Virus record (IMG/VR): IMGVR_UViG_3300027278_000009
Direction: 5' to 3' (one strand)
Source: a virus
DNA length: 64,000 bases
The notes beneath the pieces were generated by a model. The model saw only the letters and a list, made by a program, of their open reading frames with translations, made no database searches and had not been told where the DNA came from. Positions 25,048-47,041 of the stretch are shown here, in pieces. A program made the translations under genes and the position numbers. How positions within the stretch are numbered: the first letter of the stretch is position 1; every line of letters starts with the position of its first letter.

Positions 25048-28000
25048 ATGGCATATTCAGCTTATATTGCTACGTCGGGCCCTCAAGGGGAAACAGGTCC
25101 TATTGGATCACAAGGTGATCAGGGTTTCCAAGGTTTCCAAGGAGATCAAGGTACCCAAGGTACACAAGGTACCCAAGGTAATCAAGGCGATCAAGGTTTC
25201 CAAGGTTTCCAAGGCGATCAAGGTTTCCAAGGTTTCCAAGGTGATCAAGGTACCCAAGGTACTCAAGGTACTCAAGGTACTCAGGGTGACCAAGGTACTC
25301 AAGGTACTCAAGGTACTCAGGGTGACCAAGGTTTCCAAGGTTTCCAAGGTGATCAAGGAACTCAAGGTACTCAAGGTACTCAGGGTGACCAAGGTACTCA
25401 AGGTACTCAAGGTACTCAGGGTGACCAAGGTTTCCAAGGTTTCCAAGGTGATCAAGGAACTCAAGGTACTCAAGGTACTCAAGGTTTCCAAGGTGATCAA
25501 GGAACTCAAGGTACTCAAGGTACTCAAGGTTTCCAAGGTTTCCAAGGTGCTCAAGGCGTACAAGGTTTTCAAGGTAATACACTCCCAGTTGGTGGTGGTA
25601 TTACAGACGGTGTTGCCGTTGCTGTTGATTCATCAAATGTAACTACTTACGCGGGGTTAACTTACTCCGATGGTGATTTAAATGTTTCAGGTAACATTAA
25701 CGCGACAAACATTACAGATATCAATAATGATATCGCAACTTTACAATCAGACTTAACAACTGAAGTATCTACAAGAGCTGCAGCAGACATTACTTTACAA
25801 GGTAACATTGACGCTGAGGCATCTGCAAGAGATGCTGCTGACGTTACTTTGCAAGCTAACGTTGATGCGGAAGCATCTGCAAGAATTGCATCTGATGCTA
25901 CTTTACAAGATAATATCGATGCTGAAGCAGTTGCAAGAGCTGCTGCTGACGTAGTATTATCTACAGCTGATGTTACTTTACAAGGTAACATTAATGCTGA
26001 AGCATCTGCAAGAGCTGCAGCTATCGCTACAGTATCTTCAGCTGTTTCTACAGAAGCATCTACAAGAGCTGCAGCAGACGTTACTTTACAAGGTAACATT
26101 GATGCTGAAGCATCTGCAAGAATTTCTGGTGATGCTACTTTATCTTCAGCAATTTCTACGGAGGTTTCTAATAGAACTTCAGCTGATGCTACTTTATCTT
26201 CAGCTATTTCTACAGAAGCAGCAGTAAGAGATTCAGGTGATGCATCTTTAACTCAAGCAATTGCACAAACTAATCTTATCACGGCACAAAACTACGGTTT
26301 TGTATCAACAGATATTTTAGAAGAAGAAGCGGCAAGAATTGCAGCTGATGTTGTTTTACAAGATAACATCGATGCTGAAGCAGTTGCAAGAGCAAACGCA
26401 GATACATCATTAGCAACTTCAGTTTCTGCTGAAGCAACAGCTAGAGCATCTGCTGATGTTACTTTACAAGGTAACATTGATGCTGAAGCATCTGCAAGAA
26501 TTTCTGGTGATGCTACTTTATCTTCAGCAGTTTCTACAGAGGTTTCTAACAGAGTTTCTGCTGATGTAGTTTTACAAGACAATATTGATGTTGAAGCATC
26601 TGCAAGAGCAAATGCCGACATTACATTACAAGCTAACGTTAATGCTGAAGCATCTGCAAGAGCTGCGGCTGACGTTACTTTACAAGCTAACGTTGATGCT
26701 GAAGCATCTGCAAGAATTTCTGCAGTTTCATCTTTAGCAACTTCAATTGGTGTTGAACAATCTAGAATCGATGCTATCTTATTAGCGTCAGACGCAGATA
26801 AAGATTCTTTCGCTGAGATTGTATCTTTAATCAACGCAGTTGATACAACAAACGATGACGCTTTAGCAGTAGTTATTGCAAACTTAAATGCAGAAATTTC
26901 TTCAACAAATGCTGATGTTATTTCTATTAATACTGCAATTTCTGACGAAGCTTCTTTAAGAGTATCTGGTGATTCAACTTTATCTTCAGCTATTTCTTCT
27001 GAGGCATCTGCAAGAGCTACAGCGGATTCAACATTACAAGCAAACATCAATGCTGAGGCTACTGCTAGAGCATCTGCTGCTTCATCTTTAACTTCAAGAG
27101 TTTCTGTTGAAGAAGATGCAAGAGCTGCGGCTGACGTTACTTTACAAGCTAACGTTAATGCTGAAGCATCTGCAAGAGCTGCGGCTGACGTTACTTTACA
27201 AGCTAACGTTGATGCTGAAGCAACTGCAAGAGCTGCTGCTGACTTAACTCTTCAAGGTAACATTGATGCTGAAGCATCTGCAAGAGCTGCAGCTATCGCT
27301 ACAGTATCTTCAGCTGTTTCTACAGAAGCATCTGCAAGAGCTACTGCTGATACATCTTTAGCAACTTCAATTTCTACAGAGGTTTCTAATAGAACAACAG
27401 CTGATGCTACATTATCTTCAGCAATTTCTACAGAAGTTTCTAACAGAACATCTGCTGACGCTACTTTATCTTCAGCAATCTCTACAGAAGTTTCTAACAG
27501 AACATCAGTTGACACTGTATTATCTTCGGCTATTTCTTCTGAAGTTTCTACAAGATCTACAGCTGATACTTCTTTAACTTCAAGAATTTCTACTGAAGAA
27601 TCTACAAGATCTACAGCTGATACTTCTTTAACTTCAAGAATTTCTACTGAAGAATCTACAAGAGCTACAGCAATTGGTTCAGTATCTACAGCAGTTTCTG
27701 CTGAAGCATCTACAAGAGCTACAGCTGACGTATCTTTAGCTGGTTCGGTTTCTGCTGAAGCATCTGCAAGAGCTGCAGCTGACGCAGTATTATCTACTGC
27801 TGATGTTGCTTTACAAGACAACATTGATGCTGAAGCGGTTGCAAGAGCTGCTGCTGACGTAACTCTTCAAGGTAATATTGACGCTGAAGCATCTACAAGA
27901 GCAGCAGCTGATGTTACTTTACAATCAAATATTGATATTGAAGTTTCCGCAAGAATTTCTGCAGTTTCATCTTTAGCAACTTCGATTGGTGTTGAACAAT

Positions 28001-31000
28001 CTAGAATCGATGCTATCTTATTAGCTTCTTCAGCTGATAAAGATTCATTTGCTGAAATTGTTTCATTAATCAATGCAGTTGACACAGTTAATGATGACGC
28101 TTTAGCAGTAGTTATTGCAAACTTAAATGCAGAAATCTCAGCTACTAACACAGAGGTTAATTCTTTAGTTGCAGTTGATTCTTCATTATCTTCAGCTATT
28201 TCTACGGAAGCATCTACAAGAGCTACAGCAGATACATCATTATCTACTGCAATCTCTACGGAAACATCTACAAGAGCCGCTGCTGATACTTCTTTATCTA
28301 CAGCAATTTCTACTCAAGCTTCTGCAAGAGTTACGGCTGATGCTTCTTTATCTACAGCAATTTCTGCTGAAGCAGTTGCAAGAGCTGCGGCTGACGTTAC
28401 TTTACAAGCTAACGTTAATGCTGAAGCATCTGCAAGAGCTGCTGCTGATTTAGCTTTAGATTTAAGAATTCAACCAATTGAAACTGAGCTTCCTAATATA
28501 GAAGCTTCAATCGATTCTTTAGAATCTGTAGATGCTGGTTTACAAGCTCAAATCAACGCAATCCCTGCAACAGAGGATTATGTTGATGCTGCTGCACTTT
28601 CTGGTAATATTCTTACATTAACTAGAGTATTAGGCGGACAAGTTTCTGTTGATTTAAGCCAGTTTATGGATGACACAGATACAGATAACTTTGTAACTTC
28701 AGGTTCATTCGATTCTAATACGCAGCAATTAACATTAGTAAAAGCAAATGGCAATGTTACAATTGATTTAACACAATTAGTAAATGAATCAGAATTAGCA
28801 GCCGCACTTTTAGCAGCTAATCAGTATTCAGACGATAACGACACTTTCGTAAACGGTGCAACATTTAACGATACAACTAGAGTTTTAACAATTTCTAGAA
28901 ATGATGGTACTAATTACGATGTAAATATTACGGGAGCTCAAGGTTTCCAAGGCTTCCAAGGTATAAAAGGAGATAAAGGTTTCCAAGGTTTCCAAGGAGC
29001 TAAAGGTGACCAAGGTTTCCAAGGTTTCCAAGGAGCTAAAGGTGACCAAGGCTTCCAAGGTTTCAAAGGAGATCAAGGTTTCCAAGGTATCAAAGGAGAT
29101 CAAGGTTTCCAAGGTATCAAAGGTGATCAAGGTTTCCAAGGTATAAAAGGAGATAAAGGTGACCAAGGCTTCCAAGGTATAAAAGGAGATAAAGGTTTCC
29201 AAGGTTTCCAAGGAGACAGAGGTTTCCAAGGTTTCCAAGGAGACAGAGGTTTCCAAGGTTTCCAAGGAGATAAAGGTTTCCAAGGAGATAAAGGTTTCCA
29301 AGGTTTCCAAGGAGACAGAGGTTTCCAAGGTTTCCAAGGAGATAAAGGTTTCCAAGGAGACAGAGGTTTCCAAGGTTTCCAAGGAGATAAAGGTTTCCAA
29401 GGAGACAGAGGTTTCCAAGGTTTCCAAGGAGACAGAGGTTTCCAAGGTTTCCAAGGAGATAAAGGTTTCCAAGGAGACAGAGGTTTCCAAGGTTTCCAAG
29501 GAGATAAAGGTTTCCAAGGCTTCCAAGGAGCTAAAGGTGACCAAGGTTTCCAAGGAGCTAAAGGTGACCAAGGCTTCAAAGGCGATCAAGGCGCACAAGG
29601 TACACAAGGTAACAAAGGTGATCAAGGCGCTAAAGGTGATCAAGGATTTAAAGGTGATCAGGGTTCTACTGGTCAAAGAGGTAGTGATTGGACAAGCGGA
29701 GCCGGTCTTCCGGATCCAGGCGATAACGGCCAGCTTATAGGAGATCAGTACTTACAAACAGGAACAGGCAACGTATATGTATGGAATGGTTCTACATGGG
29801 TATTATCTGGAAATATCAAAGGTGCTCAAGGTTTCAAAGGTGATCAAGGTGCTCAAGGTGCTCAAGGTAACCAAGGTATGAAAGGATCATTATCAGGTAC
29901 TTCTACAAATCCTGGTGGAGATGGTATTGTTGGTGAATTCGTTGGCCAATTATACATTTCATCTTCTGGTGCAATCTTCTCTTGGTCAGGCTCTTATTGG
30001 GCTCCAGCCGGTAACTGGACAGGCGCTCAAGGTGCTCAAGGTAACCAAGGTGCTGCAGGTACTAACGGTACTAACGGTACTCAAGGTTCTCAAGGTTCTT
30101 CAGCAATGGTTGAAGGTATTTGGAAATGGCAGAATGATGGTCAATCATCAAATTCTGGTGAAATCTCTGGCCCAACGTCATTTACTAACCCATTCATGGA
30201 AGTAGGTAATACTTATATTACTTCATTAACATTCAATGTACTTGATAAGGACGGAGATAGCTTTGCATCTGCATTCGCAGCGGCAGGCCCAGGTACTCAA
30301 ATGATGATATCGACCGTTAACGCTCCACACGCAGGTGCCGGCACGTTTACAGTTAGTAGCATCACAACAGTTGGCAACTACTACATTGTCAACGGTACAA
30401 TGAACAGTACTGTGCTTCCATTTAACAATGCATTCCCAGATGACAAATGGGTTTATGTTGAATTTGCAATTGTTGCGCAACAAGGTGTTCAAGGTTCTTC
30501 AGGTAACCAAGGTTTCCAAGGTGCTCAAGGTACACAAGGTCGTCAAGGTCCACAAGGTTTCCAAGGTATCAAAGGTGCTCAAGGTACTCAAGGTAACCAA
30601 GGTAATCAGGGTATCAAAGGTGATCAAGGTTTCCAAGGTATCAAAGGTGATCAAGGTTTCCAAGGTATCAAAGGTGATCAAGGTTTCCAAGGTTTCAAAG
30701 GTAACCAAGGTCTTTACGGTGCTCAAGGTACTCAAGGTAACCAAGGTAATCAGGGTATCAAAGGTGATCAAGGTTTCCAAGGTATCAAAGGTGATCAAGG
30801 TTTCCAAGGTATCAAGGGTAACCAAGGTAATCAGGGTCCTACGGGTCCTGAAGGTCCTTCAGGAACTGATGGTTCTAATGGTTCACAAGGTAACCAAGGT
30901 CCTACAGGTACTCAAGGTACACAAGGTCGCCAAGGTCCTACAGGCCCTACGTTATCAGTTGTGAATAACACTAACAATAACATTATTACAGCAACTGGTG

Positions 31001-31497
31001 GTTCAACAGTTAATGGTGAAGGTGGTTTAACGTTCAGCGGTACTACATTCAGTTTCCAGAATGGTGAAATCAAAATGACTAATGACACTGACGCAGGAAC
31101 AGCTTATGGTACTCCGTGGCACCTTAACATTGTTCCAGGCAATATGCCTAACGATGGCGTATTTGACGCACCAGTTCCAGTAATGTTTGATATGCTAGGT
31201 GGAGGTATTGGTATCCAAGCATCTTCATTAAGATTCAAATCTGACGTTGAACCTTTAGAGTTTAATATGGGAGCATTCCTAAGCTTGAACGCTAGAGAGT
31301 TCACATGGACAGAAACAGGTAAGAGAGATATTGGTTTCATCGCCGAAGAAGTTGTAGAATTCGATCCAAGAATCGGTGTTACAGACGGCCAAGGAGGTTA
31401 TATCTCAATGCACTATGACAAAATGACAGTCTACTTATTCCAAGTGGTTAAGCACTTAAATGCTAGAATCGCAGAATTGGAGAGCAGATTAAAATAA
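25048..31497 (+). CDS. Giant fibre protein: collagen-like segments, long coiled coil and C-terminal intramolecular chaperone (peptidase S74-like)
   Basis: Gly-X-Y runs, 18-aa AEASARAAADVTLQANVD repeats, terminal SSLRFKSDV...IGFIAEEV...YDKM...coiled coil. Confidence 0.9.
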   Translation: MAYSAYIATSGPQGETGPIGSQGDQGFQGFQGDQGTQGTQGTQGNQGDQGFQGFQGDQGFQGFQGDQGTQGTQGTQGTQGDQGTQGTQGTQGDQGFQGFQGDQGTQGTQGTQGDQGTQGTQGTQGDQGFQGFQGDQGTQGTQGTQGFQGDQGTQGTQGTQGFQGFQGAQGVQGFQGNTLPVGGGITDGVAVAVDSSNVTTYAGLTYSDGDLNVSGNINATNITDINNDIATLQSDLTTEVSTRAAADITLQGNIDAEASARDAADVTLQANVDAEASARIASDATLQDNIDAEAVARAAADVVLSTADVTLQGNINAEASARAAAIATVSSAVSTEASTRAAADVTLQGNIDAEASARISGDATLSSAISTEVSNRTSADATLSSAISTEAAVRDSGDASLTQAIAQTNLITAQNYGFVSTDILEEEAARIAADVVLQDNIDAEAVARANADTSLATSVSAEATARASADVTLQGNIDAEASARISGDATLSSAVSTEVSNRVSADVVLQDNIDVEASARANADITLQANVNAEASARAAADVTLQANVDAEASARISAVSSLATSIGVEQSRIDAILLASDADKDSFAEIVSLINAVDTTNDDALAVVIANLNAEISSTNADVISINTAISDEASLRVSGDSTLSSAISSEASARATADSTLQANINAEATARASAASSLTSRVSVEEDARAAADVTLQANVNAEASARAAADVTLQANVDAEATARAAADLTLQGNIDAEASARAAAIATVSSAVSTEASARATADTSLATSISTEVSNRTTADATLSSAISTEVSNRTSADATLSSAISTEVSNRTSVDTVLSSAISSEVSTRSTADTSLTSRISTEESTRSTADTSLTSRISTEESTRATAIGSVSTAVSAEASTRATADVSLAGSVSAEASARAAADAVLSTADVALQDNIDAEAVARAAADVTLQGNIDAEASTRAAADVTLQSNIDIEVSARISAVSSLATSIGVEQSRIDAILLASSADKDSFAEIVSLINAVDTVNDDALAVVIANLNAEISATNTEVNSLVAVDSSLSSAISTEASTRATADTSLSTAISTETSTRAAADTSLSTAISTQASARVTADASLSTAISAEAVARAAADVTLQANVNAEASARAAADLALDLRIQPIETELPNIEASIDSLESVDAGLQAQINAIPATEDYVDAAALSGNILTLTRVLGGQVSVDLSQFMDDTDTDNFVTSGSFDSNTQQLTLVKANGNVTIDLTQLVNESELAAALLAANQYSDDNDTFVNGATFNDTTRVLTISRNDGTNYDVNITGAQGFQGFQGIKGDKGFQGFQGAKGDQGFQGFQGAKGDQGFQGFKGDQGFQGIKGDQGFQGIKGDQGFQGIKGDKGDQGFQGIKGDKGFQGFQGDRGFQGFQGDRGFQGFQGDKGFQGDKGFQGFQGDRGFQGFQGDKGFQGDRGFQGFQGDKGFQGDRGFQGFQGDRGFQGFQGDKGFQGDRGFQGFQGDKGFQGFQGAKGDQGFQGAKGDQGFKGDQGAQGTQGNKGDQGAKGDQGFKGDQGSTGQRGSDWTSGAGLPDPGDNGQLIGDQYLQTGTGNVYVWNGSTWVLSGNIKGAQGFKGDQGAQGAQGNQGMKGSLSGTSTNPGGDGIVGEFVGQLYISSSGAIFSWSGSYWAPAGNWTGAQGAQGNQGAAGTNGTNGTQGSQGSSAMVEGIWKWQNDGQSSNSGEISGPTSFTNPFMEVGNTYITSLTFNVLDKDGDSFASAFAAAGPGTQMMISTVNAPHAGAGTFTVSSITTVGNYYIVNGTMNSTVLPFNNAFPDDKWVYVEFAIVAQQGVQGSSGNQGFQGAQGTQGRQGPQGFQGIKGAQGTQGNQGNQGIKGDQGFQGIKGDQGFQGIKGDQGFQGFKGNQGLYGAQGTQGNQGNQGIKGDQGFQGIKGDQGFQGIKGNQGNQGPTGPEGPSGTDGSNGSQGNQGPTGTQGTQGRQGPTGPTLSVVNNTNNNIITATGGSTVNGEGGLTFSGTTFSFQNGEIKMTNDTDAGTAYGTPWHLNIVPGNMPNDGVFDAPVPVMFDMLGGGIGIQASSLRFKSDVEPLEFNMGAFLSLNAREFTWTETGKRDIGFIAEEVVEFDPRIGVTDGQGGYISMHYDKMTVYLFQVVKHLNARIAELESRLK
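25078..25578 (+). repeat. Pro-poor collagen-like repeat (GFQ/GDQ/GTQ)
   Basis: 9-nt periodic CAAGGT-rich tandem repeat. Confidence 0.95.
25723..28560 (+). repeat. Ala/Ser-rich coiled-coil repeat region
   Basis: Recurrent GCTGAAGCATCTGCAAGA blocks, approx. 54-nt units. Confidence 0.9.
28933..29673 (+). repeat. Collagen-like repeat (GFQ/GDK/GDR/GIK)
   Basis: Tandem GGTTTCCAA / GGAGATAAA / GGAGACAGA units. Confidence 0.95.
30481..30948 (+). repeat. Collagen-like repeat ([12 protein letters not shown])
   Basis: Gly-X-Y run before the [10 protein letters not shown] module. Confidence 0.9.
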
Positions 31498-31562: not shown

Positions 31563-33656
31563 ATGGCAACAAGAATTAGTTTAAAAGATTTAGCATCGCT
31601 AAGATCTAATTTGAAGCTTGTATCTGATGAGGCTGCTATACTTAAACAAAAGTATACTGCTTCAAGATTAACAGGTGAAAGCAAGCCACTTCAGTATGGT
31701 GCAGATGAGACATACACTTCTCTTTTCAAATTAGGTCCGATTGTTTCTGAATTAGTTGACGGTGTTGCAGGTCTTGAAACGGAACTCCAACACATTCACC
31801 AATATATTGAGGGACAGTTAGGTAGAGATGCTGACGTATCTATCTTACCACCAAACGTTCAAATCGATAATAACGGTACTCCAGTGCAGCTTTTATCTAT
31901 TGGCGCAAATGGTACTGAATTGCACATTGATGAATTATACGTGGGTCCTAATTCGTTATATGTTAACGGAAAGAAGGTTATCCACGATAGTTCTGATACA
32001 ATTATCTTATCAACAGATAGAGATAAAGCATTTGTAGTACAAACGACAGGTGCTGGTGTTTTACAATTACAAGCACAAGCTGGTGGTATTAATGTAACAT
32101 CAGAAGGTGGACTGACAATTAACTCTGATATCACAGTTAATTCATCAAAATCTATCTCAGGATCAAACGCAACAACTGGCTTACAAGTTGGTAAAACTCA
32201 AGTTAATGGTCAATTAACAGTTGATGGTAACATCATCTTAGACCAGCAATTTAAAATTGCATTTGCAGGCGATGCATTAAATACATTTATTGCAGCAAAT
32301 ACAAACACACCAGAGGATTTAGAAATCCACGCAGATCAAAACATTAACCTTAAACCAGATAACAACGTATTAGTTAATGGCACGCCAATTATCAATGAAT
32401 TAGGTCAGTGGATTGGTTCAGTAGCTGGTATGCAAGGTGCTCAAGGTACTCAAGGTAATACAGGTCGTGATGGTAACCAAGGTTTCCAAGGTGCTACAGG
32501 CGCTAAAGGTGATCAAGGTACTCAAGGTAGACAAGGTCCTACAGGTCCACAAGGTTTCCAAGGTGCTACAGGTGCTAAAGGTGATCAAGGTTTCAAAGGT
32601 GATCAAGGCGCTAAAGGTGATCAAGGTTTCCAAGGGGCTCAAGGAGCTAAAGGCGATCAAGGCTTCCAAGGCGCTAAAGGTGATCAAGGTATCAAAGGTG
32701 ATCAAGGTACTCAAGGTAGACAAGGTCCTACGGGTCCACAAGGTTTCCAAGGTACTACAGGCGCTAAAGGTGATCAAGGTTTCCAAGGTGCAGCTGGTAG
32801 AGATGGTTCTACAGGCGCTAAAGGTGATCAAGGTTTCAAAGGTGATCAAGGCGCTAAAGGTGATCAAGGTTTCCAAGGTGCTACAGGCATTAAAGGTGAT
32901 CAAGGTATCAAAGGTGATCAAGGTATTACAGGTGCTCAAGGTACTCAAGGTAGACAAGGTCCAACCGGTCCACAAGGAGTTACAGGTACTAAAGGTGATA
33001 CTGGTGCTACTGGTTCTGCGGGTGGTTCAATCACAAATGCTAGATTACAAGGTCTTGATTTATTAATCACTGGCGATGCGTTTGGAGAATTAAACGTAGG
33101 TAGAGTATATGGTGAAACTGGAGCAACTGGCGCACAGGGTTCTACTGGAGCTAAAGGTGATCAAGGTTTCCAAGGAGCTACAGGAGCTACAGGTGCTAAA
33201 GGCGATACAGGTATCAAAGGTGATCAAGGTATTACAGGTGCTCAAGGTACTCAAGGTAGACAAGGTCCTACAGGTCCACAAGGTTCTACTGGAGCTCAAG
33301 GTTCTACTGGAGCTCAAGGTTTCCAAGGTGCTAAAGGCGATACAGGTATCAAAGGTGATCAAGGTATTACAGGTGCTCAAGGTACTCAAGGTAGACAAGG
33401 TCCAACCGGTCCACAAGGTTCTACTGGAGCTCAAGGTTTCAAGGGTGATCAAGGTTCTACTGGTCCAACTGGTCCTACTTTAGCTGTTGTAAATAACACA
33501 AACAATAACATTATTACAGCAACTGGTGGTTCAACAGTTAATGGCGAGTCTAACTTAACATTCGACGGTTCAACACTTTACACAACGGCTTTAAGAGTTG
33601 ATGGTTTCATCATCGATCAAAACGCTAATGGTGATTTAGAGTTTAGAATTGTATAA
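31563..33656 (+). CDS. Collagen-like fibre protein with N-terminal coiled-coil and beta-rich domains
   Basis: GAKGDQGFQ and [12 protein letters not shown] repeats; C-terminal [15 protein letters not shown] module shared with 25048. Confidence 0.88.
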
Positions 33657-34966: not shown

Positions 34967-36451
34967 ATGGCTAATCATTCAAAATTTATCGCTAGTGAAA
35001 GCGAATTTCAAGTAGAAAATGGCTCCTTAATTGAAGGGGCTTCTTTAGGTACTAATGTTGTTGCTAAAATGAATAGAACAACTGGTGATTTAGAAGCTTT
35101 AAATATTAGTGAGACTTATAATGCATTAGATGCTCTTGGATGGCACATTAACGAAGACGGCCGAAGATGGTGGTCTAATCCAAACAGCCAAACATTTGGT
35201 ACAGAAAATGCCGGAGGCGCTGGCCCAGGTTGGTATGTTTATAAACAATCAAATATTTATACAACAATGCGTAAATATGCTGGTAAAGATTCTCTTTACG
35301 GTATGCATATTTTTAGATATCCTAATATCACTTCAGATTCTACTTGGGGTGGTTTAAGTTTATATCCGCCAGCAGCTTGTAAATTAAGAGGCCATAAGTA
35401 TAGATTCTCATTTGATTACAGAGGATCTACTAATGGAAATTATATGGAAATTTTCCAAAACCATACAATTGGTTGGGGTAGCTTAGGTATTGGTTTACCA
35501 ACTCCATGGAACCAACCCATCGGAGCATTCGATACAGATTGGGAATGGCAAAGATATGAATATGATTTTACAATTGAAGATCAATATTTAGATTGGGTAC
35601 CGGGTTCTAATGGAACGGTATGGGATCCAAATGTTCAATACGGTCATTGGAGTTTGGTTACACATGAAGGATATGTATATAGAAAACCAAGCTGGACTGG
35701 AACTCCAACAAAAGGTGTTCCACCAAGTGAAGAGTATCCAAGTATTTGGGATTATAGAACAGAACAGGTTGCTGGATCTTTTGATTTGTATAATAATCTT
35801 AAAATTGGATTTACGTACCAATCGCAAGGGTCTAGAGGCACTCACGTATTTATTGATAATATTCAAATCACAGATATTACTAATAATAATAGATTTAAGT
35901 ATAACGGAACAGGTTGGGAAGCTGATAACTTAGCTGAAAAGACAACACACATTTTTGCTAAAGGAACCGCGTATGGTGGAGTTTTCCAAAATGGTGATGT
36001 TGCCCAGGGAGATGTTTTTGCAATTGAAGGTTCTAGAGTTGTTAGAATTAATGGAATCGATGCTGGTGTTCCAGGCGGTAGAGGTATGGCTTTAACAGTT
36101 ATAGAAGAATCTTCAGGCACTGTTCTTTCACAAGAAGTATTTGATATTTATAGTGTTGATGCTAGAAGAACTGATCTTGCTAATGCTTTAGCAGCAATTG
36201 GTCCAGAACAACTTTGGGTTTTAACGTCGTTTGACGCTATTAATCCTAATGCTGCATTAGATGCTCAAATGGCTTCAATGGGATCAATTCTTTTAGTTAA
36301 TGATGGAAATGAATATTCAGTATTTAAGAACGGTGGATACAGAAGCACATACGCTGCGGTTGGTAGAGGTCAAAAACTTATCAAAGAAGACGGATCTACA
36401 CAAGGCGAAACAGTGTATAAGAGAAAAGGGGTTATCGATCTAAAAGTTTAA
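34967..36451 (+). CDS. Putative receptor-binding protein: CBM5/12-like insert plus C-terminal ILEI/GG-type lectin-like domain
   Basis: WDPNVQY...LVTHEGYVY; GRGMALTVI...FDIY...LANALAAI...VLTSFDA...YRSTYAAVG. Confidence 0.55.
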   Translation: MANHSKFIASESEFQVENGSLIEGASLGTNVVAKMNRTTGDLEALNISETYNALDALGWHINEDGRRWWSNPNSQTFGTENAGGAGPGWYVYKQSNIYTTMRKYAGKDSLYGMHIFRYPNITSDSTWGGLSLYPPAACKLRGHKYRFSFDYRGSTNGNYMEIFQNHTIGWGSLGIGLPTPWNQPIGAFDTDWEWQRYEYDFTIEDQYLDWVPGSNGTVWDPNVQYGHWSLVTHEGYVYRKPSWTGTPTKGVPPSEEYPSIWDYRTEQVAGSFDLYNNLKIGFTYQSQGSRGTHVFIDNIQITDITNNNRFKYNGTGWEADNLAEKTTHIFAKGTAYGGVFQNGDVAQGDVFAIEGSRVVRINGIDAGVPGGRGMALTVIEESSGTVLSQEVFDIYSVDARRTDLANALAAIGPEQLWVLTSFDAINPNAALDAQMASMGSILLVNDGNEYSVFKNGGYRSTYAAVGRGQKLIKEDGSTQGETVYKRKGVIDLKV

Positions 36452-36482: not shown

Positions 36483-36641
36483 ATGGAAGAGCAAATTCAA
36501 GGTATAGAAAATGAATTAGGTTTTATTACTTTAGAGATAAATTCTGCCCAAACCGAACAAGAAAGGCAATCTATCGAGGATAGATATAGTAATAAAATCC
36601 AAAACTTAGTTCAACAATTAGAACAGTTAAAAAACAATTAA
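36483..36641 (+). CDS. 52-aa coiled-coil protein
   Basis: Hand-translated MEEQIQGIENELGFITLEINSAQTEQERQSIEDRYSNKIQNLVQQLEQLKNN. Confidence 0.65.
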   Translation: MEEQIQGIENELGFITLEINSAQTEQERQSIEDRYSNKIQNLVQQLEQLKNN

Positions 36642-36649
36642 TATAGACA

Positions 36650-38311
36650 ATGGCTCAATTAAAATCAGGAACTACAATCGGAGGTCATTTAGTATTACAT
36701 GCTGGCAACTTTGACCAAAACTCTTATTTGAGTTTTAAAGGAGCAACAGGTCCTCAAGGTTATAAAGGTGTCCAGGGTTATAAAGGAGCAACTGGTAACC
36801 AAGGTGCTCAAGGATCTCAAGGGGTTCAGGGTACTAAAGGATTTACAGGATTTAATGGTGACCAAGGTTATGTTGGTCCAACTGGTCCAACAGGATATAC
36901 CGGTGCTAATGGTTATAAAGGTATTACAGGAGATACAGGTTATCAAGGCGCAACTGGACCAACTGCTTACGTTGGTTATCAAGGTGCTAAAGGTCCAACT
37001 GGCACGCAAGGTGCTAAAGGTTATGTTGGTCCAACTGGTAACCAAGGATCTACTGGTCAAATTGGCCCAATAGGTCCACAAGGATATACTGGTGTTCAAG
37101 GTGTTGCAGGACCATTAGGTCCTCAAGGTGGTAATGGAGCAGTAGGTGCTCAAGGTCCACAAGGCGCTCAAGGTGTTCAAGGTACTGGTGGTAACCAAGG
37201 AAGTACTGGAGGCCCGGGTCCAAGAGGCCCACAAGGTGCTGCACAAACAACGAGAGGTCCACAAGGGGCTAAAGGTAATCAAGGTGCAAGAGGTCCACAA
37301 GGTTCTCAAGGTAATACAGGCCCACAAGGTTATGTTGGATTTCAAGGAGATCAAGGTGTACAAGGTACTGCACAAACAACAACAGGTCCACAAGGGGCTA
37401 AAGGTTCACAAGGACCTAGAGGTCCACAAGGCGATATGGGTCCTGATGGTTATATTGGATATATTGGTTATCAAGGTGATCAAGGTGTACAAGGTCCAGC
37501 ACAAACAAATGCTGGCCCACAAGGAGGTACAGGACCAAGAGGTCCACAAGGAGACCAAGGTCCAAGAGGTGATCAAGGTTATATTGGTTTCCAAGGAGGT
37601 CAAGGTCCAAGAGGTCCTCAAGGTACTGCGCAGACAAATACAGGTCCACAAGGTGGTAAAGGTTCAACCGGTCCACAAGGCCCACAAGGCCCAAGAGGTC
37701 CACAAGGATATGTTGGTCCAATTGGTCCAAGAGGTCCACAAGGGGATCAAGGATCTGCACAAACAAACGCAGGTCCACAAGGAGCTAAAGGTATTCAAGG
37801 ACCGATTGGTCCGCAAGGAGAAAGAGGTGTTCAAGGATACCAAGGTACCATTGGTTTAACAGGATATACTGGACCAATTGGTATAACTCAAACAACTGTT
37901 GGCCCAACAGGCCCAACTGGACCAATAGGTCCAGTTGGATATATAGGTGGAACAGGTCCACAAGGACATACCGGATATATTGGTGTAACAGGATATATTG
38001 GTCCAGTTGGCCCAGGAGGTCCACAAGGTCCAAGAGGAGCTCAAGGTCCTCAGGGTGGAGATGGTCCACAAGGTCCACAAGGAGATACGGGCGGTAAAGG
38101 TCCTACATCGACTGCAGGTCCTACAGGTCCTAATGGTCCACAAGGAGCAACAGGAACTAAAGGTGCTACTGGATCTCCAGGTCCTAGAGGAGCTACAGGT
38201 TCTACACCACCATTAACCTTGGTTCTTCCAGGCGGTTATAATGGAACATTACAAGATGATAACTACCAAAACTTTACAGTAACTTCTGGTTTTATATCAA
38301 GTATCTATTAA
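36650..38311 (+). CDS. Collagen-like protein A (tandem trio)
   Basis: 30-aa leader [12 protein letters not shown].....HAGN then Gly-X-Y; six G.AQTN/T-type interruptions. Confidence 0.9.
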
Positions 38312-38349
38312 TAAGATAAACTAATTTGAAAAAGAATATAATATAAAAA

Positions 38350-39972
38350 ATGGCAAAATTATCATTAAATACAACAATTGCTGGACAAACGGTTTTTCAC
38401 ACCGGTAATTTTGATAAAAATGCATACACAGCATGGATCGGTAATACCGGTCCAGTTGGTTTAACTGGTGATCAAGGAGTTATTGGTGATCAGGGAGCAA
38501 CAGGATATACAGGTCCAATTGGTTATACTGGTGGTACTGGTAATACTGGAGCTACAGGCTATGTTGGTAATCAAGGTGCTAAAGGAGCAGTTGGAGCAAA
38601 TTCAGCAGTTACTGGAGCACAAGGCGATACTGGATCAACAGGTCCAAAAGGTCCTACAAGCTCAACAGGTCCTAATGGTCCACAAGGTCCTCAAGGTGAT
38701 TCACCTAGAGGTTTCCAAGGAGACCGCGGTCCACAAGGAGCACAGGGATCTTTTCCAACAGGCCCAACAGGGCCAGTAGGTCCACAGGGTGCTAAAGGTA
38801 TTGCTCCAACAGGTCCAACTGGTTACCAAGGATCTCAAGGTGCTACTGGATTTATTGGAAATATTGGTCCTCAAGGTTCTAATGGTCCATTAGGTCCACA
38901 AGGTGCTCAAGGTGTTGATGGTTATCAAGGAGTTGCTGGTCCAATTGGTGAAAGAGGTTTCCAAGGAGATGTTGGAGATACTGGTTATACTGGATATATT
39001 GGCCCTCAAGGTGCTAAAGGATTTACTGGGGCAACAGGTTATGTTGGTTATCAAGGTGGTGCTGGCCCAATTGGTCCAAGAGGTTTCCAAGGAGATACTG
39101 GTGTTCAAGGATATATTGGTAGAACAGGCCCAACAGGTCCAACTGGCCCACAAGGCCCACAAGGATATACTGGAGTTCAAGGTACTGCAGGTCCTTTAGG
39201 CCCAAGAGGTCCACAAGGAGCAACAGGATATACTGGAACAATTGGAGTTACAGGATACAATGGTTTAGTTGGCCCAACAGGTTACATTGGAGTACAAGGT
39301 TATCAAGGTACTGCAGGTCCTGAAGGCCCAAGAGGTTTCCAAGGAGATCAAGGTACACCTGGTTATATTGGCGTTCAAGGATATAAAGGTCCAAATGGTC
39401 CACAAGGCCCACAAGGATATACTGGAGTTCAAGGTACTGCAGGTCCTTTAGGCCCAAGAGGTCCACAAGGAGATATTGGTCCAAATGGTCCTACTGGAGT
39501 AACTGGTTATACTGGTTATATTGGTCCAATTGGCCCTCCTGGAGCAAGAGGTATACAAGGTGCTGCAGGTCCACAAGGTCCTCAAGGTTCTAAAGGACCT
39601 CAAGGTTCTAATGGAACACCTGGTCCATCTGGTCCAACTGGCCTAATTGGCCCACAAGGTCCAAGAGGTCCACAAGGTGCTGTAGGTCCACAAGGTCCTC
39701 AAGGTAATATTGGATATAATGGTTTTACAGGTAGACAAGGTCAACAAGGATACATTGGCCCAACAGGTGGACCAGGAGATTCAACACCAGGTCCACAAGG
39801 CCCACAAGGCCCAAGAGGTCCACAAGGCGGTCCAGGTCCAACTGGACCAAATGGCCCACAAGGATATCAAGGCGTAGATAATGTTAGCGTTTATGCTGGT
39901 GTAGATGGTCAGCTCTTCTTTGAAGGTGGATCAGTTTCCAGACCAGTAGAAGGTGGGTTAATAATGTTCTAA
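38350..39972 (+). CDS. Collagen-like protein B (tandem trio)
   Basis: Paralogous 30-aa leader; long uninterrupted Tyr/Pro/Thr-rich Gly-X-Y run. Confidence 0.9.
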
Positions 39973-40007
39973 TAAATTGAAATTGAAATAAATTATAATA
40001 TAAAAAA

Positions 40008-41702
40008 ATGGCTGTATTAAAAATAGGAACAACAATTGGAGGAAACGTAGCATTACATGCTGGTAATCTTAATCCTTCTAATTTTCCTCAATTCATAGGT
40101 GCTCAAGGTTCTAGAGGCACTCAAGGAGCTAGAGGTCCTCAAGGAGACAAAGGCTACACTGGCCCAACTGGCCCAACTGGTCCAAATGGTGCACAGGGTC
40201 CTCAAGGTTTCCAAGGCTCTAGAGGTTCTCAAGGTGCTACTGGATTCCAAGGTAATCAAGGTGCTATAGGTTCTCAAGGAGCTAAAGGTTCTCAAGGTTC
40301 TCAAGGAATTATTGGAGATAGAGGTCCTCAAGGAGTACAAGGTACTATTGGTTTTACTGGAGCTCCAGGAGCAATAGGATATCAAGGTGAAACAGGATAT
40401 ACTGGATACTTAGGACAACAAGGTCCTCAAGGAGCTAGAGGTTCACAAGGCCTTGTTGGAGTTACTGGAGATCAAGGAGTAACTGGTCCAACTGGTCCAA
40501 CTGGATTTACAGGATATAATGGTCCTGTTGGAGCACCTGGTCCTAAAGGAATTGCACCTACTGGATATACAGGCTATACAGGTAGAACTGGACCAACAGG
40601 TCCATTAGTTACTGGTCCAACAGGATATACTGGCACACAAGGTGGAGCTGGTGGTACTGGTCCTGAAGGCCCAAGAGGTCCACAAGGAGATAAAGGAGCA
40701 GCTGGCCCAACGGGAGCAGTCGGTCCATTAGTTACTGGTCCAACTGGATATACTGGCCCAACAGGCCCTACTGGTGTTCAAGGACCAAGAGGTACACAAG
40801 GTACACAAGGAACTAAAGGAGTTACAGGTTCAACTGGTATTGTGGGTCCTTTAGTTACAGGCCCTACAGGTTATATTGGAGTTAAAGGTCCAGGCGGTCC
40901 ACAAGGTCCAAGAGGTACTCAAGGAACTACAGGCCCAGGCGGTCCAACAGGCCCAACTGGTATTATTGGTCCTTTAGTTACAGGTCCAACTGGATATGTT
41001 GGATATATTGGCACGACAGGTATACCAGGACCAAGAGGACCACAAGGAGATACTGGTCCAATTGGCTATAAAGGCCCAACTGGTCCTGTTGGTCCATTAG
41101 TTACTGGTCCACAAGGATACACTGGCCCAACAGGCCCAAGAGGACCACAAGGTTCTAGAGGTCCACAAGGTCCACAAGGTCCAAGAGGTCCACAAGGTCC
41201 ACAAGGTTATACTGGTCCTCTTGTAACAGGATATCAAGGTGTTCAAGGAGACAGAGGTAATCAAGGAACTTTCCCAAGAGGTCCACAAGGTTCACAAGGA
41301 CCTAGAGGTTACCAAGGTTATGTTGGCCCAACAGGACCAACAGGATTAATTGGTCCAAACTCAACAACCCCTGGTCCAGGCGGTCTACAAGGTTATAAAG
41401 GCCCAACAGGACCAGCAGGATCTGCTGGATCCTCGCCTAACGGCCCACCAGGGCCAAATGGCCCAACAGGCTATACAGGTACAACTGGAGCCCCAGGTGG
41501 AACAGGTGCAAAAGGATTCCCTGGATTTGGATGGGATTCAACAAACCACGTTGGAGGTACATTAACAATAGATCACGTAATGAATGGATATATTGTTAAT
41601 ATTTATAAAGGTAGAATTACAGGTGTTACTCCACAAGCACCACCACCATCTCCATCACCATCTCCAACACCGTCCCCAAGACCAGGAAGAGGTTCAGCTT
41701 AA
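40008..41702 (+). CDS. Collagen-like protein C (tandem trio) with (Ser/Thr-Pro)n tail
   Basis: Paralogous 30-aa leader; six GPLVT interruptions; [17 protein letters not shown] tail. Confidence 0.9.
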
Positions 41703-41722
41703 TATTAACAAATATTTTAGAT

Positions 41723-41751
41723 AAAAAAGAGGACTACGGTCCTCTTTTTTT
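41723..41751. terminator. Bidirectional intrinsic terminator (cUACGg loop)
   Basis: AAAAAAGAGGAC-TACG-GTCCTCTTTTTT. Confidence 0.92.
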
Positions 41752-41796
41752 ATGAGATATATACAACATAATAACAGAGTAATATAATAACTTATT

Positions 41797-42882
41797 ATGA
41801 TTAACAACTTTTGTATTTGTACTTTAACACATTCAACTCAAGGTAGAGGTAGAGCTTTAAAGTATACTATAAAATCTTTTATGGATGATTATAGTGGCAG
41901 CAAGTTTGAATGGTTTATTTGGGTAAATATAACCGATGACACTATTAATGAAACTTTAGAATGGGCACAAGAAACTTATTCTGACCGTGTTAAATTTAAT
42001 ATCCGGATTAGCGATGTAAATTTAGGTCCAGGCGGAGGGATTAATAGATTAAGCGAAATGTCTAAGGAATACGAATATAGTATCTTCTTAGAAGGAGATT
42101 GGTTATACATTCCAAGTTGGGTTTCAGGATTAAGTCATAATTGGATTCAAGAAAGTATTGAGTTTCTTGAAGTTAATAAAGATGTAACTCATATTCAATT
42201 AAGAAAATATCTAGATGATATGGATGATCGACAATATACATTTGGATATTGGGTCAGACCTGAAAACGTTGAGCAGGTTGTAGATTGGACTGGTAATGAA
42301 TATGCAATTATGCATAAAAGAATGTACACAAATACGCCATGTCTTCGTAGAATGAGTGCATATTATGATTTAGGCGTTTTTCCATTAAAAGAGTTTTATG
42401 ATGAACATGGAAATCCAACCGAACATAAAGGTAATCAAGATTGGGGACAAGCAGAATTACAGACACCAGATGATATGAAAGCTGCTTGGATTTATTATGG
42501 TACATTTGTTCACTTTGAGGATTGGGCTTATGAAGATGATTGGCAACATTATGCAGAAGGTAAATTTGGTTGTGGAGTTTATCCAGCTAGAGGACTTAAC
42601 AGATGTAAATATGGATATTTAGTACCAAACCATTCTTTCTGTACGATGTGTAAGAAGGATAAAGATATTACAGATCATGTTGAGCATATTAAACGCCACA
42701 CAGATCATGTGATTATGCTTAAAGAAGAATTTAAAAACAATCCTCAAGATCTTACATTTGACGTATTCTTAAGTAGAATTGAAGGTTTAATTGAAAATCC
42801 AACAATTAATCCTAGAGAATATAACGATATTGAACTATACCACAATATAGGTGTAATCAGAAAGAAAAATAAACAATCTTAA
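41797..42882 (+). CDS. GT-A/GT2-like glycosyltransferase with Cys-containing C-terminal extension
   Basis: NLGPGGGIN, SIFLEGDW; C...C...CTMC tail. Confidence 0.55.
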   Translation: MINNFCICTLTHSTQGRGRALKYTIKSFMDDYSGSKFEWFIWVNITDDTINETLEWAQETYSDRVKFNIRISDVNLGPGGGINRLSEMSKEYEYSIFLEGDWLYIPSWVSGLSHNWIQESIEFLEVNKDVTHIQLRKYLDDMDDRQYTFGYWVRPENVEQVVDWTGNEYAIMHKRMYTNTPCLRRMSAYYDLGVFPLKEFYDEHGNPTEHKGNQDWGQAELQTPDDMKAAWIYYGTFVHFEDWAYEDDWQHYAEGKFGCGVYPARGLNRCKYGYLVPNHSFCTMCKKDKDITDHVEHIKRHTDHVIMLKEEFKNNPQDLTFDVFLSRIEGLIENPTINPREYNDIELYHNIGVIRKKNKQS

Positions 42883-42906
42883 TAAACAGAATATAAATAT
42901 AAAAAT

Positions 42907-43860
42907 TTGACAATTATGCACGAAACAGCAAGTTCAAATGTATTACTAAACTTAGATAGAGCAGTTAAAAGTGATACTCTCTATACCTTAACAGGTTGGG
43001 TTGCTTCAAATCTTGGTAAGATTACCGAGTTTTGGACAGCTAATGAGAACGGTTACAAACACATTAAATTAGGGGCTAAATTCTATTCTCGCCCTGATGT
43101 ATTGGATTTTTATCCACAATTTGCAAATAATGTAGATTCATTAGGATTTGAATTTGGATTAAGCAGATCAGCAATTTCTACAGGGTTTGTGGTTGTATTA
43201 GAAGATGGTACTGAGCATTTCATTGGTAGTTTACATGCTGCTATTATTGAAAAATCAGGATTTATGCCAACAACTCATAAAGATCTTATTGTTGTTGATG
43301 ATTTCTACGCGGACCCAGATGCTGTTCGAGAATTTGCAATTAATAATTTAGAATTCCAACCTTCAAATTACCATAAGGGCCAAAGAACACATGGCAGATT
43401 TATTCTTGAAGGAACTAAAGAAAAGCTTGAAGAAATTATCGGCCGTAAGATTATTAATTGGAACCACACTTCTTATGCTAATGGTGTTTTCCAATTCTGT
43501 ACTGCGGATCAACCTATTGTGTACCATATCGATACACAAATGCTAGCAGCAATGGTATATCTTACGCCAAATGCTCCAGTTTCTTCTGGTACAGCGATGT
43601 ACAAGAGTAAGATTAATGGTGTTCGCAATTTCCCAGGTGATAGTAGAAATTCTAATCTATATGAAGAAGTATTTAAAGGAATTAGTGATTCAATGAATTT
43701 CTACGATTCATCACAATATGAAATGGTAGATACTTTAGGTAACGTATATAACCGATTAGTTATTTTCAATTCTTCTAATATTCACGCAGCAACTCAGTAT
43801 TTTGGTGATGCAATCCATAATGCTAGATTCTTTCACATGTTCTTCTTTGATGTTGAATAA
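42907..43860 (+). CDS. Two-domain protein: unknown N-terminus plus DUF6445-like 2OG-Fe(II) oxygenase
   Basis: IVVDDFYADPDAVR, HxD (HID), AAMVYL.P.AP...GT, YNRLVIF, IHA; start may be ATG 42916. Confidence 0.65.
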   Translation: MTIMHETASSNVLLNLDRAVKSDTLYTLTGWVASNLGKITEFWTANENGYKHIKLGAKFYSRPDVLDFYPQFANNVDSLGFEFGLSRSAISTGFVVVLEDGTEHFIGSLHAAIIEKSGFMPTTHKDLIVVDDFYADPDAVREFAINNLEFQPSNYHKGQRTHGRFILEGTKEKLEEIIGRKIINWNHTSYANGVFQFCTADQPIVYHIDTQMLAAMVYLTPNAPVSSGTAMYKSKINGVRNFPGDSRNSNLYEEVFKGISDSMNFYDSSQYEMVDTLGNVYNRLVIFNSSNIHAATQYFGDAIHNARFFHMFFFDVE

Positions 43861-43873
43861 AATAAATTTATAA

Positions 43874-45772
43874 ATGGCTTATAATTTACATATCTTAACA
43901 AGATGTACGCGTCCTAAAAATTTAACGACAGTACAAAATTCTGTTTTCACAGATACACACGGATTAAACATAACTTGGCACGTTATATTTGATACAGCAC
44001 CTTTAAAGGATATTGATGCTGAATTATTATCAAGTATTTCAGGTCCACAAACTAAAATTCATTTCATCAATGCAGGGGATGGCGGTCTTTTATATCCACA
44101 ATGCACTGAATTAATTAAAGGAATTGAAGATCAAGATGCATGGATTTATTTCCTTGATGATGATAATATCTTACATGAAAACTTTTACAATAGAGTTTCT
44201 GAGTTTGTAAAAGAAAATGCAAAGATCCATGTATTTTCCCAATATATTGGTGGAAAAGATTTTACAGGATTAGAAGTTAGGCATGCGACTTTTGAAAATA
44301 CTGGTTTCCAAAAAACAGATATTGCACAGATTATTTTCAAAAGATCATTGATGGAAGATTATACGTTTGGAAGTAATTATGCAGCAGATGGATATTTTAT
44401 TTCAGCAGTTCTCAAAGATCACTTTGATTGGTTTAGCTGGCATAATGAAATCTTATCTTATTATAACCATTTGGAAAAGCCATCAAAGGCTAGAATTCCA
44501 AAGGTAATTTACATTGGTCCAGGCCAGCCTGAATTAATTAGCCGTCAATTTGTAAATTACGAGGCAAACGATCTTGACGTAAAGTATTTTGAGAATGATA
44601 ATGGCATTGTTCAACAAATTATAGAATTTAATCCAGATTCTATTGTTACAGTAGGAGGCACTTGGCAAGATTATCCAAATCTTGCATCTCTTCCAATTTC
44701 TTTACGTAGAAAATGGAATCATGTTGAAGATGTAAATATACCAATCGATGAAATCGGTTCAAGAGCGTATATGGGAGCAATGACAACCATGCTCAGTCCT
44801 CAATATTTAAATGATGAAGAAACTATTTCGTTTGTTACACCAATCTATAACACTGGTACTAAATTATATCAAACATACCAATCTCTCGCTCGTCAGACTT
44901 ATGAAAACTGGGAATGGGTTCTAGTGAATGATTCATCCGATGGTGGTAAAACATTGAAGATCGCTGAGAAGATTGCAGCAATGGATCCTAGAGTTAAGGT
45001 ATATGACTTTAGAGAAAAATCAGGTGGAATTATCGGTGAAGTTAAATATCGTGGTAACGCTCTTGCAAGAGGATACATTTTGGCAGAATTCGATCATGAT
45101 GATATTTTAACACCAAACGCAGCAATGGATATTCATTTAGCGGCGAAAAAGCACCCAGAGTGCGGATTCTTCTACACTGATTGTACTGAATGGACAGAAG
45201 AAGGAGAATCATTAAGATATGATCCAGGCTTTGCATTCTCTTATGGTAATTATAGATTAGAAGAATATGAAGGTAAAGATGTTTGGGTATGTAATCAACA
45301 TGACATTAATCCTAAAACAATTCGACATATTGTTGGTGTACCTAACCACGTAAGAGCTTGGAGAAAATCTACATACTTTGAAATTGGTGGTCATAACCGA
45401 GGATTAGCAATTGCTGATGATTATGAATTAGTTGTACGCACATTCTTACATACTAAGATGTGTCGTATTCCAAATCTATGTTACATTCAATATATCTACA
45501 ATAATGCAGGTGGACAAAATACACACAATTTGGCCCGAGCAGATATTCAACGTAGAGTTCGTACTATTATGTACTACTATAATGAACAAATTAAAGATAG
45601 ATTTGAAGAACTTGGATTATACGACTGGGCATACTATGAAAATCCAAATGCACCATTACATGTTCAATCCAAATTTGGTGAAGAAGAACAAGTTGCAAAT
45701 ATTACATACGTTGAAGGAGAAACCCTCAATCCAGACGCTGTAAACAAACCAGCTCTACAAGAAACATGGTAA
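43874..45772 (+). CDS. Tandem (two-domain) GT2 glycosyltransferase
   Basis: WIYFLDDDN in domain 1; ISFVTPIYN, WEWVLVNDSSD, AEFDHDD, ADDYEL in domain 2. Confidence 0.85.
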   Translation: MAYNLHILTRCTRPKNLTTVQNSVFTDTHGLNITWHVIFDTAPLKDIDAELLSSISGPQTKIHFINAGDGGLLYPQCTELIKGIEDQDAWIYFLDDDNILHENFYNRVSEFVKENAKIHVFSQYIGGKDFTGLEVRHATFENTGFQKTDIAQIIFKRSLMEDYTFGSNYAADGYFISAVLKDHFDWFSWHNEILSYYNHLEKPSKARIPKVIYIGPGQPELISRQFVNYEANDLDVKYFENDNGIVQQIIEFNPDSIVTVGGTWQDYPNLASLPISLRRKWNHVEDVNIPIDEIGSRAYMGAMTTMLSPQYLNDEETISFVTPIYNTGTKLYQTYQSLARQTYENWEWVLVNDSSDGGKTLKIAEKIAAMDPRVKVYDFREKSGGIIGEVKYRGNALARGYILAEFDHDDILTPNAAMDIHLAAKKHPECGFFYTDCTEWTEEGESLRYDPGFAFSYGNYRLEEYEGKDVWVCNQHDINPKTIRHIVGVPNHVRAWRKSTYFEIGGHNRGLAIADDYELVVRTFLHTKMCRIPNLCYIQYIYNNAGGQNTHNLARADIQRRVRTIMYYYNEQIKDRFEELGLYDWAYYENPNAPLHVQSKFGEEEQVANITYVEGETLNPDAVNKPALQETW

Positions 45773-46440
45773 CATTTATCATACCTACTTTATGGAAGTC
45801 TGAATGCATCTACAAAACAATAGATGCCATTCAGGCTTCTACTATTTCAGGTATTGAATTGTTTATATTTGATAATGCAAAATCAGGATATGAATCACCA
45901 GACTCTAGAATTAAAGTAGTTAATGATAAAGATTATTGGGTTAATCCAGCATGGAACCGCGGGGTCGAATTAGCAAGCAACGAGTGGATTTGCTTATTAA
46001 ATGATGATATACACGTCAATGTAGATCTTTTATGTAAAACATTTAAAAGAGACGTAATAGATAAGCCTGAAGTTGTATCATCCTTTGGTAATTTAGGTTA
46101 TAAAACTTCTCAACCGTTTTATGAAGAGATAAATGGAGATAATGAGGAATTAAATGTAATTCCACAGCCTTTTAAAGGAAATGGATACGGCCAACTTATA
46201 ATTATTAACAAAAAAGATTGGTCGCCTATTCCTGAATATTTTAGAGTTTATTTTGGAGACGATTTTATACACTATGTAACTGAAAATCTTCTCCAAAAAC
46301 AAAGTTTATGTTTCGATAACTTAAAAGCCATTGGACAATACAGCGCAACTTCACGAGAGATCGAATATATTTTACAACAAGAATTTACGTTTTGGAATAA
46401 AGCCGTAAATGATATTAGAGACAAATTAACAAACAATTAA
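45766..46440 (+). CDS. GT2-family glycosyltransferase
   Basis: TFIIPT, FIFDN, VNPAWNRG, CLLNDD, YFGDD. Confidence 0.8.
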   Translation: MVTFIIPTLWKSECIYKTIDAIQASTISGIELFIFDNAKSGYESPDSRIKVVNDKDYWVNPAWNRGVELASNEWICLLNDDIHVNVDLLCKTFKRDVIDKPEVVSSFGNLGYKTSQPFYEEINGDNEELNVIPQPFKGNGYGQLIIINKKDWSPIPEYFRVYFGDDFIHYVTENLLQKQSLCFDNLKAIGQYSATSREIEYILQQEFTFWNKAVNDIRDKLTNN

Positions 46441-46444
46441 AATT

Positions 46445-47041
46445 ATGAAAACAGATTACGTTTTTCCGTACAAACACAATGATCCACAACAGTGGTATTG
46501 GTTTAAAGAAGGATTTTCTAGATCAGAATTGCATAAGATTTATGCAGACTTGCAGAATATTCCTTTTGAAAGAGCAACAACGTTAGGTAGCACCGATGGT
46601 GGTGAAGTAAGACGTTCAAATATTAAGTGGCTCCCGCGTGATGAACATTGGGGATGGGTATATGAAAAATTAATCAATATGGCTGTTGAGGCTAATAACT
46701 CTCTTTGGCATTTTGATTTGCATACTGCGCCTGAACAGATTCAATACACCGAATATGATGCAGCCGAGTTAGGTCATTACGATTGGCACCAAGATATTGG
46801 ACACGGCGGAGCTTCTCTTAGAAAGGTTTCTATTACGGTTCAATTATCGGAGTCAAACGAATATGATGGAGGAGATCTTGAAATCTGGCAAGGTGGAGAT
46901 ATCGATACAGCACAATACACACCGCGTGGAGCAGGTAATGTGATCATTTTCCCAAGCTATATGCCTCACCGTGTAAAACCAGTTACAAAAGGACTTAGAC
47001 GTTCCTTTGTATTATGGGTAGGCGGAGAGCATTACAAATAA
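46445..47041 (+). CDS. 2OG-Fe(II) oxygenase (prolyl-4-hydroxylase/PKHD-like)
   Basis: YDWHQD, RKVSITVQL, YDGGDLE, IFPS..PHRVKPVTKG.R.S. Confidence 0.85.
   Translation: MKTDYVFPYKHNDPQQWYWFKEGFSRSELHKIYADLQNIPFERATTLGSTDGGEVRRSNIKWLPRDEHWGWVYEKLINMAVEANNSLWHFDLHTAPEQIQYTEYDAAELGHYDWHQDIGHGGASLRKVSITVQLSESNEYDGGDLEIWQGGDIDTAQYTPRGAGNVIIFPSYMPHRVKPVTKGLRRSFVLWVGGEHYK

Follow-up and report, generated by a model that had tools for sequence, protein, structure and literature searches.

Three neighbouring viral collagen genes probably encode a single heterotrimeric tail fibre

Introduction

Mixed (heterotrimeric) collagens have so far been described only in animals. The stalk of C1q is an ABC heterotrimer whose bend is attributed to breaks that coincide in two of its three chains (PMC11463431; PMC9898670); its branch is ascribed to the breaks in chains A and C (PMC11463431), and an extra residue produces a kink in solution (PMC9898670). 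Collagens IV, VI and IX, like designed ABC peptides, have axial Lys-Asp pairs that set the register (PMC7824840), and they carry breaks of unequal length in their three chains, for which kinks have been proposed and no crystal structure is available (PMC11923368). In contrast, collagen-like proteins of bacteria and phages are reported to be homotrimers, and their value as models of animal heterotrimers is limited accordingly (PMC8968730). Heterotrimers of C. difficile BclA were modelled and rejected (PMC13188886), and no viral heterotrimeric collagen was found in the literature that we searched, the coverage of which was incomplete. Here we analyse three collagen genes, named A, B and C, which begin at positions 36650, 38350 and 40008 of a stretch of 64,000 nucleotides (nt) of the virus record IMGVR_UViG_3300027278_000009 (the window), and whose products are very probably the chains of one 1:1:1 heterotrimeric collagen forming a distal tail fibre.

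Three chains with matched breaks

The chains, with lengths in amino acids (aa), and their joints are the following; the joints of A and C were obtained by parsing of the Gly register.

36650..38311, plus strand: chain A, middle strand, with a gp36-like N-terminus (553 aa, 161 triplet-equivalents)
37235..37900, plus strand: six +1 joints of A (G6G type), period of 43 aa
38350..39972, plus strand: chain B, trailing strand (540 aa, 161 triplet-equivalents)
38929..39576, plus strand: six unbroken joint-equivalents of B (G-x-A-G-P-x), period of 42 aa, in phase with the joints of A and C
40008..41702, plus strand: chain C, leading strand, with a Pro-rich tip (564 aa, 162 triplet-equivalents)
40599..41228, plus strand: six -1 joints of C (G4G type, GPLVT), period of 41 aa

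Automated parsing placed the 7-residue breaks of A at nt 37235, 37364, 37493, 37622, 37751 and 37880 and the GPLVT breaks of C at nt 40599, 40722, 40845, 40968, 41091 and 41214, neighbouring breaks within either chain being always 12 plain triplets apart. These six and six breaks and their spacing had been reported by an earlier reading of the same DNA (the original prediction), and proved exact; that reading covered two paralogues only and left out the middle one, B, which is in phase with the joints. Genes A and C are identical in an independent assembly (L001). The tail of B in L001 carries a fold-back duplication (L001:10640-10720) that shortens B to 532 aa and is probably an assembly artefact.

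The chains can be compared in slots, a slot being a triplet-equivalent and each break being counted as the nearest whole number of triplets. Each joint then adds one residue in A, none in B and takes one away in C, and all three chains repeat every 14 slots. In B, an unbroken run of 108 triplets hides this period (autocorrelation peaks at lags 14, 28 and 42), and a conserved G-x-A-G-P-x-G-P-R motif stands at the positions that match the joints of A and C. The equal count of 12 triplets in A and C would follow from both being rods of the same helix. All three chains finish with a break, then 10 triplets and a short tail of about 30-56 aa, and Pfam recognises Collagen alone in them. Proline occupies 37-39% of the X positions and 1-4% of the Y positions.

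Register between the chains and its conservation in relatives

Each Y residue of a triple helix touches, in the next chain, the X residue that lies one triplet further along (PMC9599227). Axial Lys-Asp pairs determine composition and register, competing compositions being disfavoured (PMC7824840). When A, B and C are placed in the order C-A-B, 21 of the 27 lysines pair with an Asp or Glu of another chain at axial offsets of +1, +1 and +2. The last offset is that of standard geometry, where the contact from the trailing to the leading chain lies two triplets on. Ten of the pairs run from Lys of A to Asp/Glu of B at +1 (0.9 expected), five from Lys of B to C at +2 and six from Lys of C to A at +1, whereas the three homotrimers would hold 1, 0 and 0. 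In 1000 null trials, each taking its best order and shift, the maximum was 8 pairs after shuffling and 9 after rotation, and on a combined score C-A-B comes top of 27 compositions with 118, the next reaching 71 and the homotrimers 23-33. The pairs are found ahead of, between and beyond the joints with unchanged offsets, which confirms that the joints are to be read as +1 and -1; a reading of G4G as +2 was rejected, since the inter-chain pairs keep register only with -1. The label 'leading' hinges on numbering from the first triplet, while the cyclic order is independent of it. Matched helical lengths and one favoured register, two of the marks of an ABC heterotrimeric collagen, are both present.

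Relatives were located via homologues of the knee gene that precedes A (described below) and of the gene downstream of C; scans of viral contigs with single proteins as query returned none. The relative loci are of two kinds, many with one gp36-type collagen gene and others with three. In three-gene loci the slot totals are 176/176/176 (L002), 115/115/116 (L004) and 212/213/213 (L058), and residue counts within a phage are less alike than these totals (531/525/515 in L002 and 656/633/618 in L058, a spread of up to 38). The period is 14 slots in the window phage, 13 in L002, 12 in L004 and 7 in L058; in L058 the +1/0/-1 design recurs at 22/21/20 residues, the periods of L002 are 39/39/37 residues, and a 21-slot period is common to all three chains of L065. 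Because the periods of relatives differ, the conserved feature is the agreement among the three chains of one phage and not the number 12, and a universal 12-triplet ruler was rejected. The original prediction had proposed rigid rods of 12 triplets (~10 nm) in two paralogues, with Gly-register mapping in homologues as the check and variable segment counts as the refuting outcome; that mapping gave periods of 7, 12 and 13 triplet-equivalents, with the chains locked to each other, and a fixed 12-triplet rod in two separate fibres is not supported.

When chains are matched by N-terminal type, the cyclic order of L002, L004 and L058 is again C-A-B, with 16, 7 and 18 charge pairs against null maxima of 6-7, 5-6 and 9-10. 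The pairs are lost (0-4 instead of 9-10) when the A and B chains are taken from different phages. In L002:11663-17071 the genes have exchanged N- and C-terminal types relative to the window, while each type is still present once and the total stays at 176 triplets. K-G-D/E motifs inside a single chain, of which there are none in A, B and C, occur in most one-gene relatives (8 of 8 Lys in L006) and in two collagens upstream of the trio (20 of 20 in that starting at 31563).

The C-terminal pieces of A, B and C folded together with a score of 0.65, against 0.03 for the best control, homotrimers not being among the controls; 58 of 80 solved complexes attain that mark, as do 2 of 110 mismatched pairs. 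Separate runs share at least 94% of contacts, the predicted local distance difference test (pLDDT) of the partners is at least 79, and the most confident contacts are among the tails. The model lends modest support to co-assembly, and likeness to collagen may contribute to its score.

Tandem Repeats Finder (TRF) gave periods of 129 nt in A and 123 nt in C, and the in-register identity of X and Y residues between segments exceeds that of shuffles (0.39 vs 0.26 and 0.37 vs 0.24), 0 of 20000 shuffles reaching the observed value. At the third positions of Gly codons the mean is 0.45 in A (0.45 expected) and 0.47 in C (0.38 expected). As silent sites are near background, the copies look old and their length kept, and the segments of A and C are best read as old tandem duplications that retained length. 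Very recent duplication as the only cause of the pattern was rejected. The original prediction had set selection on length against recent duplication: the spacing is constrained and the copies old, but the segments are tandem duplicates by both TRF and the shuffles. The repeat units differ between chains and arose separately in each lineage, the chain types being older.

Joint geometry and alternative explanations

In the C-A-B register, the missing Gly of A (slot 57), the kept Gly of B (57) and the missing Gly of C (58) form three consecutive core layers. All 6 breaks of A lie one slot ahead of a break of C, 20 of 20 agree within two slots in L058, and breaks coincide in two of three chains, as in C1q and the collectins, at 6 of the 6 joints. 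Since one strand is longer and another shorter at each joint, as in C1q, the joints likely kink as they do there. The regularly kinked, jointed fibre of the original prediction is retained in part: a jointed fibre is likely, and rods of separate fibres are not supported. Each of the six three-gene sets has break spacings grouped at 5-7 and 12-14 slots, about one or two superhelical turns. Imino-rich helices are near 7/2 symmetry and others near 10/3 (PMC4518226), and a 7/2 twist would place all kinks at spacings of 7 and 14 on one face. We tentatively propose, at somewhat short of even confidence, that +1/0/-1 joints, spaced one or two superhelical turns apart, all deflect the rope toward one side and so curve the tail fibre, and that repeat expansion coordinated across the three genes would set its length and curvature. 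The arc is offered as a hypothesis because the twist is uncertain, given the proline content at X and Y.

Among the alternatives, the one that survives best accepts the heterotrimer and holds that the joints are neutral or merely flexible, or are sites for a decoration protein or sugar-adding enzymes, the fibre being straight on average. We consider this possible, if rather doubtful: about 30 unpartnered -1 breaks in L065, the breaks of single-gene relatives and the glycosyltransferase and oxygenase genes downstream of the trio would fit it, whereas the common spacing groups of all six sets do not, and breaks comparable to the A and C joints bend C1q and MBL (PMC9898670, PMC11463431).

It is very improbable that each gene makes a homotrimeric fibre of its own, under selection for 10-nm rods joined by Thr hinges. 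Such fibres would agree with the description of prokaryotic collagens as homotrimers (PMC8968730) and with a 12-triplet count that stays exact though silent sites have largely diverged. However, the period ranges from 7 to 14 among relatives and is yet locked between chains, only 0-1 axial salt bridges would form in homotrimers, compared with 21 in the order C-A-B, and B has the period without the breaks. Threonine is likewise not conserved at the joints of relatives, which have a single inserted Q, H, Y, P or N, or dipeptides such as VG, IG, RN, NP or PR, at equivalent places; hinge Thr as a conserved modification site, an idea of the original prediction, was rejected. About as improbable is that the chains do not co-assemble and that their match is a relic of shared ancestry or of gene conversion among genes triplicated recently: the three are paralogues whose ends are related, their repeats were born of tandem duplication and the N/C swaps of L002 show recombination among the genes, but a relic predicts like residues at like positions and not Lys opposite Asp of another chain at +1, +1 and +2, and the repeat units differ between chains, with a separate origin per lineage and older chain types.

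Several observations weigh against the heterotrimer or against its curvature. Concordant totals come from four genomes only, and totals disagree in L059 (191/213/213), L065 (245/224/238) and L055/L060 (141/105/154), the last set having been combined from two samples. The discordant sets hold register near the N-terminus and then jump by whole repeat units (21, 21, 36 and 12 triplets). The sole difference between L058 and L059 is copy number in A, and a six-slot unit of L063 is missing from L065; the mismatches are likely due to assembly collapse, but could be genuinely tolerated. Breaks without a partner exist, namely the -1 breaks of B at slots 30, 36 and 42 and most of those in chain 3 of L065. 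A twist of 10/3 would rotate successive joints by 144 degrees. A lateral Gln-aromatic excess came to light only after the fact and was not counted among the primary evidence; in peptides, lateral Gln-Phe gives no stabilisation (PMC9599227).

For the heterotrimer, we envisage that the trimer nucleates at the C-end through three related 30-residue beta tails, as the folded model suggests, and that the helix zips toward the N-end in a single register, fixed from chain to chain by Lys-Asp/Glu and cation-aromatic pairs, the pattern of which is seen in the sequences and follows the cyclic order C-A-B. The three gp36-like N-termini would, by homology, dock on the gp35-like knee, and the shaft of ~161 triplets would measure roughly 140 nm at standard rise. 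Every 14 triplets A has a residue more and C a residue less, Gly being kept by B only, and a rope thus longer on one side may take a directional, C1q-like kink. Were the twist near 7/2, 14 triplets would be two full turns and the kinks might sum to an arc, a speculative step held with slightly less than even confidence.

The locus and its phage

The features that flank the trio are listed below.

34967..36451, plus strand: gp35-like knee/hinge protein with CBM-like and ILEI domains (profile and fold match)
36483..36641, plus strand: acidic helical open reading frame (ORF) of 52 aa between the knee gene and the collagen gene(s)
41720..41752 (approximate), no strand given: hairpin with flanking A and T runs, just 3' of gene C (by eye)

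The product of 34967..36451, the presumed fibre anchor, is matched by PHROG 1154 (long tail fibre proximal connector; E=1.6e-6), and its AlphaFold2 (AF2) model (pLDDT 90.7) fits gp35 models over ~175 columns at 3.1-4.3 A; no close relatives were found among cultured phages. The N-terminus of A matches phrog_1425 (gp36-type) at E=1.9e-4 and that of C at E=0.009; that of B has no match to phrog_1425 and aligns with A and C. The top tblastn matches of this N-terminal motif are gp36 genes, with weak E-values, and it matched no solved structure. The order from knee to collagens parallels gp35-gp36 of T4-like phages. The phage behind the window is large and gene-dense with a GC content of 31-46%, and its relatives have T4-type sheath, tube and baseplate genes. 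The gp36-like N-termini and the position after a gp35-like gene make it most likely that A, B and C encode parts of the distal tail fibre, in a large T4-like aquatic phage.

The 52-aa ORF, which has no family above the cut-off, stands at the same place in three-gene and one-gene relatives and is a possible assembly factor. The hairpin resembles, by eye, a terminator; it is absent from a consensus promoter/terminator scan that performed at chance level. Downstream of the trio, glycosyltransferase and 2OG-Fe(II) oxygenase-type genes occupy 41797-47041. With Y positions rich in Thr (22-29%) and poor in Pro, Thr glycosylation is a more plausible modification than proline hydroxylation. The 361-aa gene at 41797-42882 was seen, among the fetched loci, only in the three-gene type, and its product may serve the heterotrimer.

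The two upstream collagen fibre genes (25048-31497 and 31563-33656) are nearly Pro-free at Y, have 21 and 20 intrachain K-G-D pairs and are consistent with homotrimers; the product of the first ends with an S74 chaperone domain. Among the relatives, L004:2330-5315 has a tandem pair of gp35-like genes ahead of its trio. L065:3035-12492 has a three-chain collagen without a preceding gp35-like gene, a first-chain N-terminus of 99 aa, and one chain that alone bears its ~30 -1 breaks at a 7-triplet spacing. One-gene relatives (L006:2471-4531, L010:11655-13148, L016:11639) have a 133-aa non-collagen insert and variable C-terminal tails. A bS21 gene lies at 51147-51344 in the window between a DnaJ-like gene and PhoH. 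In bS21 phage clades, bS21 is on the reverse strand amid core structural genes (PMC9723584), a context not matched in the window, where the gene has the orientation of its DnaJ-like and PhoH neighbours.

Comparison with known systems and significance

C1q differs from the phage fibre in having one kink, a globular head, hydroxyproline and an 18-chain bundle, where the phage chains have six to ~20 joints at fixed pitch, short tails and little Pro at Y. Pfam gives no globular C1q or lectin head in A, B or C; lacking a head domain, the trio is not a member of the C1q family, although it would work like C1q, collagen IV and designed ABC peptides. From collagens IV, VI and IX it is set apart by being viral and hydroxyproline-poor, by its periodic joints and by coordinated repeat expansion in three genes. 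With the distal half of the T4 long tail fibre (gp35, gp36, gp37) it shares the gp36-type N-terminal motif and the place after a gp35-like gene, but only the N-terminus is gp36-like: the shaft is collagen from three genes, and a large tip domain is lacking. In T4, gp36 forms a homotrimer whose non-collagen shaft comes from a single gene, a design that A, B and C do not share. Scl2, BclA, EPclA and 80alpha FibU resemble the trio in Gly-X-Y without hydroxyproline, Pro at X, Thr/Gln/Lys at Y and stabilisation by salt bridges.

If our reading is true, the trio would be a hydroxyproline-poor, bacterially expressible and self-registering ABC collagen, and it would offer natural rules of chain selection together with a small candidate hetero-trimerisation domain. 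Its many repeats of unequal-length breaks in three chains, an arrangement that lacks a crystal structure (PMC11923368), would make the C1q kink question directly testable. Since the one-gene and three-gene forms occupy the same locus, the transition from homotrimer to heterotrimer would be traceable within one phage clade.
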